Shown in pieces: positions 9,921-59,240 of a stretch of 64,000 nucleotides of DNA. Origin of the DNA: Escherichia coli (GTDB lineage Bacteria > Pseudomonadota > Gammaproteobacteria > Enterobacterales > Enterobacteriaceae); assembly GCF_013122565.1 (NCBI RefSeq), contig NZ_CP053258.1. One strand, given 5' to 3'. The notes under the pieces were generated by a model, which did not search any database, had not been told where the DNA came from, and saw only the letters and a list, made by a program, of their open reading frames with translations. The position numbers and the translations under genes were made by a program. How positions within the stretch are numbered: position 1 is the stretch's first letter; each line of letters begins with the position of its first letter.

Positions 9921-10857
9921 GAGATCGCTTAACAGAACGGCGATGCTTTGACCTCCCGCTGTTTGTTCAAGCGCAATTTTGACAATAATTGTTAACGGCA
10001 CGGAAAGCAGCATACCCACCGGTCCTAACAACCATCCCCAAAAAATCAACGACAAAAATACCACCAATGTGGAAAGTCCCAGCCCACGCCCCATGATGCG
10101 TGGCTCCAGAATATTGCCGAAGACCAGATTAATCAGCAGATATCCCGCCAGCACCAACAACGCTTCGTAGAAGCCATTAAACACCAGTACCTGAGCGATA
10201 ATCGAGGGCGGCGAGCATCGCCCATGCGACCAGGCCGGTGATGATGCTGATGGCTGTTTTCAGCACCAGATAATGAGACACACTGTCAATCGCACGCTGA
10301 ATCGCCGCCATCCCTTCAACCGGACGCGCCATCATTTGCTGAAATTTTCCGGGCAATTGTGGCACTTCGAGCAGCATAAACAGCACCGTCAGCAGCAATA
10401 AAAATATTGATGACATGGCATTAGATAACTGCGTCAATAAGTTGGTGAGCAACGTCATCGCCGCGTTCGGATCAATGTAATGCGCCAGTTGGTCAACTGA
10501 GACGTCAATCCCTACGCGTTGCAACAACGGCTCAAGAGCTTGCAGCGGCGTCATAATAGAGTTGCGATATTGCGGTAACGTCCGCGTCAACTCGTTGAGC
10601 GCGGAACCCAGATAAGCTAACAGCAACACCATAGCCATCACGATGATGGTCATCAAAATCGACACCGCCAGTACACGCGGCACTCGCCAGCGGACCATGT
10701 GTTGCACCAGCGGGTTAAGAATAACAGCAATAAATAATGCGAGAATAAACGGCACGATGATCTCGGCGGCAAAACGGATACCGCAGAGAATAATGACCAG
10801 CATTCCCAACATAATGACGATTTTTAGGCCATTGAGCGTGATGATCGGCTTTGCCAT
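9909..10857 (-). pseudogene. tqsA: AI-2 exporter TqsA (AI-2E/PerM family) interrupted by frameshift or internal deletion
   Basis: Two collinear same-strand ORFs (10177..10857, 226 aa, and 9909..10184, 91 aa) correspond to N- and C-terminal parts of one transporter; frames switch near 10180-10215. Confidence 0.7.
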
Positions 10858-40195: not shown

Positions 40196-40449
40196 AAATA
40201 AATTAGCCTGATGGCCTGAACTACTGGGCCATTTGGGTATGGGGTTATGCTATTTGTCATCCTTTTATTTGTGATAATGCAGTGGTAATTTACAGAATTA
40301 AACACTTTTTTATCCGCTGATTTTGTTTTAAATCACAATGTTATCTCAGAGATGAATCATAACTTCGGATTTCTATGAAAATATTGACGTAATTTTGCTT
40401 TTCTCTCGTTAGAATAGCGCGCACAAGGAACTGTGAAAAAGGAGTGGCA

Positions 40450-41340
40450 ATGATCAAGAAGACAACGGAAATTGATGCCATCTTGTTAAATCTCAATAAG
40501 GCTATCGATGCCCACTACCAGTGGCTGGTGAGTATGTTTCACAGCGTGGTCGCGAGAGATGCCAGTAAGCCAGAAATAACGGATAACCATTCTTATGAAC
40601 TGTGCCAGTTTGGTCGGTGGATTGATCATCTGGGGCCACTCGATAACGATGAATTACCTTACGTTCGGCTAATGGATTCTGCCCATCAACATATGCATAA
40701 CTGTGGTCGGGAATTAATGCTGGCTATTGTTGAAAATCACTGGCAGGACGCGCATTTCGACGCTTTTCAGGAAGGGTTACTTTCTTTTACTGCGGCATTA
40801 ACCGATTACAAAATTTATTTACTGACGATCCGTAGCAATATGGATGTTTTGACGGGATTGCCGGGGCGTCGGGTTCTTGATGAATCCTTTGATCATCAGT
40901 TACGCAACGCTGAGCCTCTGAATCTTTATTTAATGTTGTTGGATATTGACCGATTTAAATTGGTTAATGATACCTACGGGCATTTAATCGGCGATGTAGT
41001 ATTACGCACCCTGGCAACTTACTTAGCCAGTTGGACGCGTGATTACGAAACGGTTTATCGCTACGGGGGCGAAGAATTTATCATTATTGTCAAAGCGGCT
41101 AATGATGAAGAAGCATGTCGTGCAGGTGTCAGAATTTGCCAGTTAGTCGATAACCATGCCATCACACATTCTGAAGGGCATATCAACATTACCGTGACAG
41201 CAGGTGTGAGTCGCGCATTTCCTGAAGAGCCTCTGGATGTGGTCATTGGAAGAGCGGACCGGGCAATGTATGAGGGTAAGCAAACCGGAAGAAATCGCTG
41301 CATGTTTATTGACGAACAAAATGTGATTAACCGAGTTTAA
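40450..41340 (+). CDS. dgcZ: Zinc-sensing diguanylate cyclase DgcZ (CZB + GGDEF)
   Basis: ORF track 40444..41340; start MIKKTTEIDAILL; RYGGEEF motif; 296 aa. Confidence 0.9.
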   Translation: MIKKTTEIDAILLNLNKAIDAHYQWLVSMFHSVVARDASKPEITDNHSYELCQFGRWIDHLGPLDNDELPYVRLMDSAHQHMHNCGRELMLAIVENHWQDAHFDAFQEGLLSFTAALTDYKIYLLTIRSNMDVLTGLPGRRVLDESFDHQLRNAEPLNLYLMLLDIDRFKLVNDTYGHLIGDVVLRTLATYLASWTRDYETVYRYGGEEFIIIVKAANDEEACRAGVRICQLVDNHAITHSEGHINITVTAGVSRAFPEEPLDVVIGRADRAMYEGKQTGRNRCMFIDEQNVINRV

Positions 41341-41379
41341 GCTCCGTTTAACATTCATTGAGAAAACTGATGCTACTGT

Positions 41380-41485
41380 GTCAACGATCCGTTATCAGTG
41401 CAGGAAAATGCCTGTTAGCGTAAAAGCAAAACACAAATCTATCCATGCAAGCATTCACCGCCGGTTTACTGGCGGTTTTTTTTCG
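41380..41485 (+). ncRNA. mgrR: Probable MgrR sRNA
   Basis: About 100 nt between dgcZ stop and a plus-strand intrinsic terminator (CCGCCGG-TTTA-CTGGCGG followed by T8); position matches K-12 mgrR between dgcZ and mgtS. Ends approximate. Confidence 0.4.
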
Positions 41486-41490
41486 CCGTC

Positions 41491-41531
41491 ATAAAAATCA
41501 GGCCCCTTGTACACAACTGTAACAAGGGGCC
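41491..41531 (-). terminator. Rho-independent terminator downstream of mgtS
   Basis: GGCCCCTTGT-loop-ACAAGGGGCC 10 bp stem followed on the minus strand by a T-rich run. Confidence 0.45.
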
Positions 41532-41558
41532 GGTTAGGTGAGGGATTATCTCCGTTCA

Positions 41559-41654
41559 TTAGTCATCCCATTTGTGGCTGAAATACGCGGCCAGAAAACC
41601 AGAAAATAAAATTATTCCCAGTACGGCCATAAAAACATTCATATTACCCAGCAT
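41559..41654 (-). CDS. mgtS: Small membrane protein MgtS (YneM), 31 aa
   Basis: Manual translation MLGNMNVFMAVLGIILFSGFLAAYFSHKWDD with GGAGG RBS; too short for ORF track. Confidence 0.8.
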   Translation of the reverse strand: MLGNMNVFMAVLGIILFSGFLAAYFSHKWDD

Positions 41655-51046: not shown

Positions 51047-51973
51047 GTGGCAGTCGCCATGGATAATGCAATTTTAGAAAACATCTTGCGGCAAGTGCGG
51101 CCGCTCATTGGTCAGGGTAAAGTCGCGGATTATATTCCGGCGCTGGCTACAGTAGACGGTTCCCGATTGGGCATTGCTATCTGTACCGTTGACGGACAGC
51201 TTTTTCAGGCTGGAGACGCGCAAGAACGTTTTTCCATTCAGTCTATTTCCAAAGTGCTGAGTCTCGTTGTCGCCATGCGTCATTACTCCGAAGAGGAAAT
51301 CTGGCAACGCGTCGGCAAAGATCCGTCTGGATCACCGTTCAATTCTTTAGTGCAACTGGAAATGGAGCAGGGTATTCCGCGTAATCCGTTTATTAATGCC
51401 GGTGCGCTGGTGGTCTGCGATATGTTGCAAGGGCGATTAAGCGCACCACGGCAACGTATGCTGGAAGTCGTGCGCGGCTTAAGCGGTGTGTCTGATATTT
51501 CCTACGATACGGTGGTAGCGCGTTCCGAATTTGAACATTCCGCGCGAAATGCGGCTATCGCCTGGCTGATGAAGTCGTTTGGCAATTTCCATCATGACGT
51601 GACAACCGTTCTGCAAAACTACTTTCATTACTGCGCTCTGAAAATGAGCTGTGTAGAGCTGGCCCGGACGTTTGTCTTTCTGGCTAATCAGGGGAAAGCT
51701 ATTCATATTGATGAACCTGTGGTGACGCCAATGCAGGCACGGCAAATTAACGCGCTGATGGCGACCAGTGGTATGTACCAGAACGCGGGGGAGTTTGCCT
51801 GGCGGGTGGGACTACCGGCGAAATCTGGCGTTGGTGGCGGTATTGTGGCGATTGTTCCGCATGAAATGGCCATCGCAGTCTGGAGTCCGGAACTGGATGA
51901 TGCTGGTAACTCGCTTGCGGGCATTGCCGTCCTTGAACAATTGACGAAACAGTTAGGGCGTTCGGTTTATTAA
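51047..51973 (+). CDS. glsB: Glutaminase 2
   Basis: 308 aa serine-dependent glutaminase family. Confidence 0.9.
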
Positions 51974-52332
51974 TGCAGTCTCTCGATCCACTCTTCGCGC
52001 GTTTATCCCGTTCAAAATTTCGATCTCGTTTTCGTTTGGGCATGAAAGAGCGTCAGTATTGTCTGGATAAAGGTGCGCCAGTCATCGAACAACATGCGGC
52101 GGATTTTGTCGCTAAACGTCTTGCTCCGGCATTACCGGCTAATGACGGTAAGCAAACCCCCATGCGCGGGCATCCGGTGTTTATCGCTCAGCACGCCACT
52201 GCAACCTGTTGTCGCGGTTGTCTGGCTAAGTGGCATAACATTCCGCAGGGTGTTTCGTTAAGCGAGCAACAACAACGTTATATCGTGGCGGTAATCTATC
52301 ACTGGCTGGTTATACAGATGAATCAGCCATGA
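51973..52332 (+). CDS. yneG: DUF4186-family protein
   Basis: 119 aa; start overlaps glsB stop. Confidence 0.75.
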   Translation: MQSLDPLFARLSRSKFRSRFRLGMKERQYCLDKGAPVIEQHAADFVAKRLAPALPANDGKQTPMRGHPVFIAQHATATCCRGCLAKWHNIPQGVSLSEQQQRYIVAVIYHWLVIQMNQP

Positions 52333-52470
52333 GAATTGCGGAAAACGATAAAATAGCATTCCCAGGGTACCTTTATTTGCCGCCGCTGTCAGCGAACATG
52401 CTATCCTTTATGAGAATTTACTTATTACGTTGAGATAATTGCCACCCGCAATTGTATGGACAGATAATTA

Positions 52471-53889
52471 ATGCATGTACACCCCATTTCAACTTTCCGT
52501 TTGTTCCAGGAAGGTCATCTGCTACGTAATAGCATCGCTATTTTTGCGCTAACCACGCTGTTCTATTTTATTGGTGCAGAGTTACGGCTGGTTCACGAAC
52601 TTTCTCTTTTCTGGCCGCTGAATGGCGTAATGGCGGGGGTGTTTGCTCGCTATGTCTGGCTTAATCGACTGCATTACTATGCGATCAGTTATGTGGCGAT
52701 GCTGGTTTATGATGCCATAACCACCGAATGGGGACTGGTTTCACTGGCTATCAATTTCTCCAATATGATGTTTATTGTTACCGTCGCCTTACTGGTCGTG
52801 CGGGATAAGCGTTTGGGGAAAAATAAGTATGAGCCAGTAAGTGCCTTACGGCTATTTAATTACTGTCTGATTGCCGCATTATTATGCGCTATTGTCGGGG
52901 CGATTGGTTCGGTCAGTATTGATAGTCTGGATTTCTGGCCTTTGCTTGCGGACTGGTTCAGTGAGCAATTCTCAACGGGCGTGTTGATCGTGCCTTGTAT
53001 GCTGACGTTGGCTATTCCTGGAGTGCTGCCGCGCTTTAAAGCAGAACAGATGATGCCCGCCATCGCGCTTATTGTGTCGGTTATTGCCTCGGTAATCATT
53101 GGCGGAGCGGGGAGTCTGGCGTTCCCGCTGCCTGCATTAATCTGGTGTGCAGTGCGCTATACGCCGCAGGTAACATGTCTGTTGACCTTTGTCACCGGTG
53201 CGGTGGAAATCGTACTGGTGGCTAATTCGGTGATTGATATCTCGGTCGGTTCGCCGTTCTCCATTCCGGAAATGTTCTCCGCACGTCTCGGTATTGCCAC
53301 GATGGCGATATGCCCAATTATGGTTTCTTTTAGCGTGGCAGCGATCAATTCGCTAATGAAGCAAGTTGCGCTGCGAGCCGACTTTGATTTTCTGACTCAG
53401 GTTTACTCACGGTCCGGTCTTTATGAGGCGCTGAAAAGTCCATCGCTGAAACAGACACAACATCTGACTGTCATGCTGCTTGATATCGACTATTTCAAAA
53501 GTATTAACGATAACTATGGACATGAATGTGGCGATAAAGTGTTAAGCGTGTTTGCCCGGCATATTCAGAAGATTGTCGGTGATAAGGGGCTGGTGGCGCG
53601 CATGGGCGGCGAAGAATTTGCTGTTGCAGTGCCGTCGGTGAATCCTGTCGATGGTCTGCTAATGGCGGAAAAAATCCGTAAAGGCGTTGAACTGCAACCA
53701 TTCACCTGGCAACAAAAAACGCTTTATCTCACTGTAAGTATTGGCGTCGGTAGTGGTCGCGCATCGTACCGAACGCTGACCGATGACTTTAATAAATTGA
53801 TGGTCGAAGCCGATACCTGTCTGTATCGCTCGAAGAAAGATGGGCGCAACCGTACCAGCACTATGCGTTACGGGGAGGAAGTTGTCTGA
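52471..53889 (+). CDS. dgcF: Membrane-anchored diguanylate cyclase (GGDEF domain)
   Basis: 472 aa ORF; N-terminal multi-TM sensor region then GGDEF domain (MGGEEFA). Confidence 0.75.
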   Translation: MHVHPISTFRLFQEGHLLRNSIAIFALTTLFYFIGAELRLVHELSLFWPLNGVMAGVFARYVWLNRLHYYAISYVAMLVYDAITTEWGLVSLAINFSNMMFIVTVALLVVRDKRLGKNKYEPVSALRLFNYCLIAALLCAIVGAIGSVSIDSLDFWPLLADWFSEQFSTGVLIVPCMLTLAIPGVLPRFKAEQMMPAIALIVSVIASVIIGGAGSLAFPLPALIWCAVRYTPQVTCLLTFVTGAVEIVLVANSVIDISVGSPFSIPEMFSARLGIATMAICPIMVSFSVAAINSLMKQVALRADFDFLTQVYSRSGLYEALKSPSLKQTQHLTVMLLDIDYFKSINDNYGHECGDKVLSVFARHIQKIVGDKGLVARMGGEEFAVAVPSVNPVDGLLMAEKIRKGVELQPFTWQQKTLYLTVSIGVGSGRASYRTLTDDFNKLMVEADTCLYRSKKDGRNRTSTMRYGEEVV

Positions 53890-57499: not shown

Positions 57500-59240
57500 C
57501 ATCCTCCACGCCCTGAATGACGAGGATCCTGCTACGTTCAGGCTGTCGCCTGAATCATTTCGGTGGGTTCCTGCTTCAACGGGCGGCCTGACTGCACCAT
57601 CCCTCCACAGGCAAGAACGGCGTACCCCGCCGCTAAAATGTTACGAGCGCCGTTTACATCGGCGTTCGCTGTATATCCACATACCTGGCATCTGAATTTA
57701 CTTTGTGACAGGCGATTTTCTTTCGTTGTATGACCACAGCACGCGCAACGCTGGCTTGTGTACGCTGGCGGAACAGCAAGCACCTGACCGCCACACCAGA
57801 GCTGCTTGTACTCAAGCTGGCGACGCATTTCATACCAGCCCTGATCCAGTATCGAACGGTTTAAACCTGATTTTGCCCGGACATTGCGCCCCGGCTGGCT
57901 GACCGTACCCGCTGCTGACTTTGACATGTTGCTGACCTTCAAATCCTCAATGACTATCATTGCGTGGTTTTTGCTGACGGTCGTTGTGACTTTGTGAAGG
58001 TAGTCCCTGCGGATATTTGCGATACGGGAATGCAGTCGCTGTATTTTGCGTTTCTGCTTCTGCCAGTTGTTGCTGAATTTGACCTTGCGGCTTAACTGTC
58101 GCTGAAGTCTCGCCAGCTTCTTCTGGTTTTTCTGAAAACTGTTTACAGGCTCAAAGACTGTGCCATCTGACAGCGTGGCGAGTTTAGCCACGCCAGCATC
58201 CAGCCCGATCATTGATGCTGAAGGGTGAACCGGAGTGGATACTTCACTTTCTGTCTGAATACTGATGTGCCACTTACCGCAGGACTGGCTGACCGTGACA
58301 TTTTTCACAACACCCGTGACCTGACGGCTATTCCGGTAGCGCATCCAGCCCAGTTTCGGCAGAAAAATACGGCTGTTTTCCTGATCGAGCTTAACGCCCT
58401 GCGGGTAGCGGAATGCATCATTCTGTCCCCGCTTTTTGAATCGGGGAAAAGCAGCCCGCTTCCGGAAGAAGTTTTTGTAAGCCCACTCAAGGTCTTTCAG
58501 TGACTGTTGCAATGGCTGTGACGGGGCATCTTTAAGCCATTGCGTTTCAGTGGCATTTTTCCACTCAACCAGCCAGGAAGCCATTTTCCCGTAAGGGATG
58601 TATTTATTACCGGCCTCATGATTCTCATTCTGACGTGCCAGAGCACGATTGAAAACGAAACGACATGCGCCTGCGAAGCGCCTCATTTCACGCTCCTGTT
58701 GACCACCGGGTCTTAACTGGAATTTAAATGCCTGTAGTCGTTTCACAGGTCAAATGATATTTTGGTCTGTGAAAAAAGAAACCGATATCCGGCGTGGAAG
58801 GCATTGTGTTTTCCTGAAGCATGTTCACATGGTCTTTGTCACCAAATACCGACGCCAGATTTTTGACCATGACGCGACAGAAAAACTACGCACTTACTTT
58901 TCAAATGTATGTGCTGATTTTGAAGCTGAACTGGTTGAAATGGATGGCGAACCAGATCACGTCCATTTGTTAATTAACTATCCTCCCAAACTGGCGATAT
59001 CCAGTCTGGTAAACAGCCTCAAAAGCGTATCGGGTAGGTTACTGCGACGAGATCGACCAGATATTGCAGCCAGGTATTACTACAAAGGCGTTTTGTGGAG
59101 TCCTGGCTATTTTGCCAGTAGCTGCGGAGGTACGCCAATATCCGTCATCCGCCAATACATTGAACAACAGCAAACACCTGGTCAGGTGGAAAACCACACC
59201 TTATATCCCCGCCCTGAAGGACGGGGTTTTACGGCGCACC
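57500..59240. mobile_element. IS200/IS605-family insertion sequence (IS609-like), about 1.7 kb, with tnpA and tnpB
   Basis: TnpB and Y1 TnpA ORFs fill the gap between tam and lsrG; similar imperfect palindromes near both ends (57506-57525 and 59207-59226). Ends approximate. Confidence 0.6.
57538..58746 (-). CDS. tnpB: TnpB (IS200/IS605 OrfB; RuvC-like RNA-guided endonuclease family)
   Basis: 402 aa, GTG start; RuvC-I GLDAG, RuvC-II IEDL, RuvC-III NADVNGA and CxxC...CxxC zinc finger present; starts [18 protein letters not shown] as recalled for E. coli InsQ. Confidence 0.9.

Follow-up and report, generated by a model that had tools for sequence, protein, structure and literature searches.

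The full-length dgcF (yneF) gene of Escherichia coli and the putative MASE1 kinship of its membrane domain

DgcF (YneF) is a diguanylate cyclase (DGC) that has been described in a long and a short form. The full-size protein of non-K-12 E. coli, both pathogenic and commensal, and of Shigella is encoded at the sad-glsB-yneG-dgcF-uxaB locus, has 472 amino acids (aa), and joins a ~300-aa hydrophobic N-terminal domain to a GGDEF domain whose A-site is intact and which has no I-site (PMC4287979). The short form is that of E. coli K-12 MG1655, where dgcF (yneF, b1522, NP_416039.1) measures 948 bp and encodes 315 aa. The extended yneF, the 5' deletion in K-12, and the hydrophobic domain of ~300 aa were already described by Richter et al. 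2014, EMBO Mol Med (PMC4287979). We analyzed a stretch of 64,000 nucleotides from an E. coli genome (GCF_013122565.1, contig NZ_CP053258.1; hereafter the window), in which positions 52471-53889 (+) encode, with a probability of about 0.93, an intact and ancestral inner-membrane DGC, DgcF, translated from the ATG at 52471. It differs only allelically from the full-size DgcF of non-K-12 E. coli and Shigella.

The full-length enzyme has been reported to play a part in adhesion, the formation of biofilm, resistance to acid, and invasion. The S. flexneri gene raises cyclic di-GMP, its GG-to-AA mutant does not, and acid resistance, invasion, and plaque size are affected (PMC11327459). Deletion of yneF from strain CFT073 reduced biofilm and adherence to bladder cells, and a heterologous DGC complemented the mutant. 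The truncated K-12 DgcF was the sole one among four cloned membrane DGCs that did not inhibit motility. A second well-described system is DgcE (YegE), whose N-terminal MASE1 domain is necessary for activity, provides a docking site for the GTPase RdcA, and serves as an entry point for proteolysis (Pfiffer et al. 2019, PMC6510439). MASE1 domains comprise ~290-300 aa with ten transmembrane (TM) segments (PMC6510439).

The dgcF reading frame and the K-12 allele

The initial annotation, made from the letters of the window, had read an open frame from 52471 with roughly 300 hydrophobic residues ahead of the GGDEF domain, and had considered this long form more plausible as the functional protein than a shorter one. 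All of this was borne out. The region is one uninterrupted open reading frame (ORF) that starts with ATG and contains 472 codons plus the stop. An in-frame TAA stands two codons 5' of the ATG, which makes the ATG the earliest possible start and rules out any extension of the frame. In the closest genome, E. coli A30, whose positions 2399521-2463520 are collinear with the window at 98.6-99.1% identity, the RefSeq annotation (produced by PGAP) gives exactly the same 1419-bp coding sequence (CDS; WP_021556823.1, "sensor domain-containing diguanylate cyclase"), and its product differs from that of the window at two residues (L11V, I209V). The gene order is ptrR / sad-glsB-yneG-dgcF-uxaB-yneE, and this conserved context together with the near-identity to E. 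coli DgcF places the gene in the DgcF/YneF orthologue group. The 472-aa form is thus supported as the real gene product by the RefSeq coordinates, by the aligned start methionine, and by the constraint on codons 18-157 described below. It is already known, being standard in RefSeq annotation and present in the literature since 2014.

Full-length orthologues of 472-482 aa were found in E. fergusonii, Citrobacter amalonaticus, Enterobacter, and Lelliottia. Their N-terminal domains (N-domains) are 87% identical to that of the window protein in E. fergusonii, 83-84% in C. amalonaticus, and 71-75% in Enterobacter and Lelliottia, a range of about 70-87% across genera, and the sad-glsB-yneG-dgcF-uxaB synteny extends to E. 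fergusonii and C. amalonaticus. The N-terminus is conserved in five genera; the initiator methionine is aligned across Escherichia, Citrobacter, Enterobacter, and Lelliottia, and F9, F12, L18, R19, and N20 are invariant among the aligned orthologues. Nei-Gojobori estimates of the ratio of nonsynonymous to synonymous substitution rates (dN/dS) for residues 18-157 were 0.04 in the comparison with E. fergusonii and 0.09 in that with C. amalonaticus, as opposed to 0.05 and 0.09 for the GGDEF domain; dS is near saturation, so that the values are approximate while their direction is clear. Codons 18-157, which are missing from the K-12 gene model, are therefore constrained as strongly as the GGDEF domain and are under purifying selection. 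Given this selection and the N-domain orthologues in other genera, the ORF cannot be put down to chance.

The short annotation foreseen by the initial annotation does exist as K-12 b1522, although it is the product of a deletion and no alternative reading of the window sequence. The K-12 start corresponds to a TTG at window position 52942 (53889-948+1 = 52942), which is codon 158, and K-12 DgcF differs from window residues 158-472 at three positions. A BLAST search with the window showed that a 498-bp segment is absent from a K-12-like genome, covering 65 bp of upstream sequence and 433 nt from the start of the CDS (codons 1-144). No microhomology was evident at the deletion junction, and in PGAP annotation the K-12-type allele is flagged as a pseudogene ("incomplete; missing N-terminus"). 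The 315-aa K-12 protein shares the GGDEF domain and the last five TM helices with the window protein and lacks, in contrast to it, the conserved upstream region and codons 1-144; it is a deletion remnant without the conserved promoter and ribosome-binding site (RBS) region and without helices 1-5, and its TTG start is an artefact. The expectation that a short form would drop the sensor domain accordingly held for helices 1-5, where the most conserved motifs lie, but not for helices 6-10, which are kept.

The dgcF locus is present in 5,414 of the 5,426 complete E. coli genomes, and 4,190 (~77%) have the 498-bp segment, counted as retained when at least 80% of its length was present. K-12-type loss or other losses of the segment account for ~1,220 of the 5,414 genomes (22%). 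The full-length enzyme is thus carried by Shigella and by roughly three in four complete E. coli genomes, and the K-12 model should not be transferred to genomes with an intact gene. When the K-12 allele is used experimentally, for instance as the ASKA clone or in the motility assays, what is tested is a truncated remnant lacking its own promoter.

Separately, a deletion in E. coli LI60C3 (locus L003, 3172-4562) joins a truncated tam to 795 bp from the 5' end of dgcF, taking out the GGDEF domain, uxaB, and yneE. This distinct 3' deletion indicates that inactivation of dgcF in E. coli has happened at least twice.

The 75 bp 5' of the dgcF ATG are more conserved than codons 2-17 among E. coli, E. 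fergusonii, and C. amalonaticus (window 52394-52470), and almost the whole of this stretch, from 52406 onward, falls inside the K-12 deletion. It contains a candidate -10 element (Table 1), and the -10-like hexamer in GAGATAAT has a TG at -15/-14 in Escherichia. The perfect palindrome that overlaps it, with its invariant arms, is a candidate operator. The palindrome was also considered as a PtrR (YneJ) site and rejected, as it does not match the published motif TTCACGAATCGaGAA. Published yneF lacZ fusions showed weak, mainly RpoS-dependent expression (PMC4287979), and dgcF is probably transcribed from its own weak RpoS-dependent promoter within the conserved 75 bp. The K-12 literature describes yneI-H-G-F as one PtrR-regulated operon; this picture may not hold for intact strains because the K-12 deletion took away the gene's own upstream region. 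The gene directly 5' of dgcF in E. coli, E. fergusonii, and C. amalonaticus is yneG (DUF4186; window 51973-52332), with 52333-52470 between the two.

Two observations weigh against translation from 52471. The Shine-Dalgarno sequence is weak (GGA only), and a generic scan gave five promoter-like matches in the region versus 3.1 ± 2.1 in shuffled sequence. With its matches at chance frequency, the scan tells nothing by itself, and support for the promoter comes from cross-genus conservation. The initial annotation would have given up the 52471 start on finding an in-frame stop or no RBS or promoter support: no in-frame stop exists, and an RBS is present, if weak, its GGA standing at an invariant place 10 nt 5' of the ATG. 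For the promoter there are the published lacZ fusions and the upstream conservation, alongside the chance-level scan.

The weak Shine-Dalgarno sequence would also suit a shorter, internally initiated product (from TTG 52942, or ATG 52630 or 52765), with the upstream 157 codons untranslated or only fortuitously open. The annotation of K-12 b1522 from the equivalent TTG and a promoter-like match within the gene (52740-52769) could be read in the same way. However, that TTG is a deletion artefact in an allele treated by PGAP as a pseudogene, and internal promoter-like matches occur at chance frequency. Residues 18-157 are strongly constrained (dN/dS 0.04-0.09) and hold the most conserved positions of the family (W48, P49, N51, G56, R60, D81, N98). 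The start methionine and F9/F12 align across genera, and since the invariant F9 and F12 lie 5' of any alternative start, every downstream start is excluded. Internal initiation is therefore regarded as highly improbable.

The frequent loss of the 498-bp segment, together with other known deletions (H30) and the very weak expression of the lacZ fusions, raises a different alternative, that dgcF is intact yet effectively silent or decaying in E. coli, a dispensable locus heading for loss. This too is very unlikely, since purifying selection is strong both inside E. coli and among genera, the upstream region is conserved, and deletion phenotypes have been reported for uropathogenic E. coli CFT073 and Shigella. 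The intact, functional gene read from ATG 52471 remains the favored interpretation.

The C-terminal part of the product belongs to the GGDEF family, as shown by matches to PF00990 (138.4 bits, cut-off 23.8, full profile covered) and TIGR00254 (130.5 bits, cut-off 37.4). Residues D338, D340, K343, N346, D347, D355, R377, K455, and R459, which include the catalytic, metal-binding, and GTP-binding positions, are nearly invariant in the family alignment. The RxxD I-site, an optional feature located five residues before GG(D/E)EF, is absent, residues 370-373 reading GDKG. From these residues, the GGDEF domain is predicted to be catalytically competent.

Table 1. Coordinates of dgcF and associated features in the window.
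Feature	Position	Strand	Basis
Full-length dgcF (yneF) CDS	52471..53889	+	ORF listing; same coordinates PGAP-annotated in E. coli A30; orthologues 472-482 aa in other genera
In-frame TAA closing the frame 5' of the start	52465..52467	+	Sequence
Putative divergent MASE1-type sensor/docking domain; integral membrane, residues 1-300, ten TM helices	52471..53370	+	Hydropathy; AlphaFold2 pLDDT 91.8; MASE1 matches of the family
GGDEF (diguanylate cyclase) domain, residues 303-461	53377..53853	+	PF00990 E = 2.4e-40; TIGR00254 E = 4.7e-38; matches to PDB GGDEF structures (WspR, PleD)
A-site motif GGEEF, residues 379-383	53605..53619	+	Read directly from the translation; agrees with Richter et al. 2014 (PMC4287979)
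TTG codon 158, equal to the annotated K-12 b1522 start	52942..52944	+	MG1655 dgcF length of 948 bp; sequence
Segment absent from K-12-type E. coli genomes, 498 bp	52406..52903	.	BLAST against K-12-like genome; present in 4190/5426 complete genomes
Candidate extended -10 promoter element TGaGATAAT	52431..52439	+	Consensus scan; GAGATAAT invariant in E. coli, E. fergusonii, C. amalonaticus
Perfect palindrome AATTGC-N5-GCAATT, overlapping the -10-like GATAAT	52437..52453	.	Arms invariant, spacer variable across three genera
Weak Shine-Dalgarno-like GGA, 10 nt 5' of ATG	52458..52460	+	Sequence; TATGGA invariant across genera

The N-terminal membrane domain and its kinship to MASE1

Hydropathy (Kyte-Doolittle) and AlphaFold2 both gave ten hydrophobic helices between residues 17 and ~292, located at 17-40, 49-64, 67-84, 89-114, 122-147, 155-179, 191-210, 213-229, 232-251, and 265-~292, in agreement with the long hydrophobic region first noticed. 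Two AlphaFold2 models were built, one of the full-length protein and one of residues 1-304, from alignments of 82 and 85 homologues and with predicted local distance difference test (pLDDT) scores of 91.7 and 91.8, respectively. In the models, the last helix runs on as a stalk (residues 265-304) into the GGDEF domain. The clusters of lysine and arginine (R10/R19, R60/R66, R111-K119, R188/K190, R229, and K297/R302) all fall on one side, a distribution that, by the positive-inside rule, fits a cytoplasmic location of both termini. An internal duplication of the ten-helix domain, considered on account of the similar motifs FWPLNG..ARY and FPLPAL..VRY, was rejected (hhalign of the two halves, E = 0.15, probability 0.4%).

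A phmmer search with residues 1-300 retrieved 405 cluster representatives at E <= 1e-3, the majority being 460-490 aa long and consisting of the N-domain and GGDEF. Some are 676-934 aa long, and in these longer relatives the DgcF-type N-domain precedes HisKA-HATPase-REC(-Hpt) modules (hybrid histidine kinases) or PAS modules. Joined to different outputs, the N-domain behaves as a modular input domain.

Many of the longer relatives match the Pfam MASE1 family (PF05231) partially to significantly, across nearly the whole 299-position profile, and 52 of the 82 aligned family members do so at E <= 0.01 (best 3.2e-11). A hidden Markov model (HMM) of the family detected the MASE1 domain of E. coli DgcE (residues 1-250) with E = 5.3e-10, and gave E > 30 or no match against seven unrelated polytopic proteins. 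The architecture agrees with that of MASE1, with an N-terminal hydrophobic domain of ~290-300 aa and 8-10 TM segments placed ahead of cytoplasmic signaling outputs. MASE1 domains, such as that of DgcE, likewise have ~300 aa and ten predicted TM helices and stand N-terminal to GGDEF, histidine kinase, or PAS outputs, whereas the membrane domain of DgcF joins GGDEF directly, without PAS domains.

Other results speak against this kinship. Window DgcF itself has no match to PF05231 even at E <= 0.1 (gathering score 29.8 bits), residues 1-300 matched nothing in a Pfam and NCBIfam scan in which GGDEF was the sole match, and of two other E. coli MASE1 proteins PdeF was not significant with the family HMM (E = 0.9) and UhpB gave no match. 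The assignment consequently depends on transitive and profile evidence, by which the N-domain is putatively a divergent branch of MASE1 whose closest E. coli relative is DgcE. No literature linking DgcF to MASE1 was found, and this assignment, together with the tentative fold resemblance described below, is what the analysis adds to prior work.

Invariant or near-invariant residues within the helices are G35, R39, W48, P49, N51, G56, R60, D81, N98, W162, P175, P196, G211/G212/G214, P221, L223, W225, C226, A227, S270, R272, G274, and P282. Half of the conserved intrahelical residues of the family lie in the part that is deleted in K-12.

Proposed signal reception and the predicted fold

Control of GGDEF dimerization is a general mode of DGC activation, as in PleD and WspR. 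For DgcF, the MASE1-like domain would pick up a signal within or at the membrane, be it a small ligand or a docking partner protein. The last TM helix and the stalk (residues 265-304) would pass the conformational change on and thereby control dimerization of the GGDEF domain, and the enzyme, lacking an I-site, would escape product feedback inhibition through such a site.

Of the two kinds of signal, a small molecule bound at an intramembrane site would be in keeping with the conserved polar residues and a predicted fold resemblance. In the model, about half of the ten-helix domain appears to resemble at fold level the S components of energy-coupling factor (ECF) transporters (RibU, BtuM, ThiT, FolT, BioY, CbiM). 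The resemblance is one of fold and not of family membership, since the S components have neither sequence similarity to the N-domain nor a Foldseek match with it. A PDB sequence search with DgcF returned GGDEF structures only, the N-domain profile gave one chance match (E = 0.46), and a Foldseek search of the PDB with the N-domain model gave nothing below E = 0.36. One of the 82 family members matches PF07155, weakly (E = 0.006). Neither an ECF sequence family nor a T-A module is indicated at the locus, the PDB sequence search having produced no such match and the neighbors being sad, glsB, yneG, and uxaB.

The S-component-like fold of the model is therefore taken as a tentative lead and not as a result. 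The DgcF-type domain, and by extension the MASE1 superfamily, might use an S-component-like six-helix bundle that senses a small molecule in a membrane-embedded pocket instead of serving only for anchoring or docking; we consider this unlikely, though it offers a concrete and testable idea for signal binding by MASE1-type domains. If it were true, the invariant intramembrane residues W48-P49-x-N51, R60, D81, N98, W162, G211-G212-x-G214, and W225-C226 would line the pocket. No literature linking MASE1 to ECF S components was found in the searchable library, and such a link may be known elsewhere, for instance from Pfam clan assignments.

By analogy with DgcE, the membrane domain may instead be no ligand sensor at all. 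It may anchor the enzyme in the membrane, offer a partner protein a platform on which to dock, and give proteolysis its point of entry, as does MASE1 of DgcE, which binds RdcA. DgcE MASE1 is the closest E. coli relative by family profile, and its docking and proteolysis roles are documented (Pfiffer et al. 2019, PMC6510439). The periplasmic loops in the AlphaFold2 model are predicted to be very short, so that an external ligand site would have hardly any space. Against this docking role, an intramembrane site would suit both the conserved polar residues and the S-component-like fold; we hold the docking role to be a serious possibility, though less likely than not.

Other observations in the window

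A second DGC locus, dgcZ, is located at ~40446-41336. Just 3' of it, positions 41352-41565 (+) match the Rfam family of the Hfq-binding small RNA STnc560 over its full length (281.9 bits), and this match is antisense to or overlaps the small-protein genes mgtS/mgtT, according to the A30 annotation. An IS200/IS605-type element, consisting of a tnpB/InsQ gene and a truncated tnpA, occupies ~57520-59170 between tam and lsrG, as judged by collinearity with A30; some other E. coli genomes have hipBA near this position (locus L003). At ~10194-10200, between pntB and tqsA, ~79 bp are missing relative to A30 at a break between two BLAST segments, and this difference is probably a small repeat-element indel.
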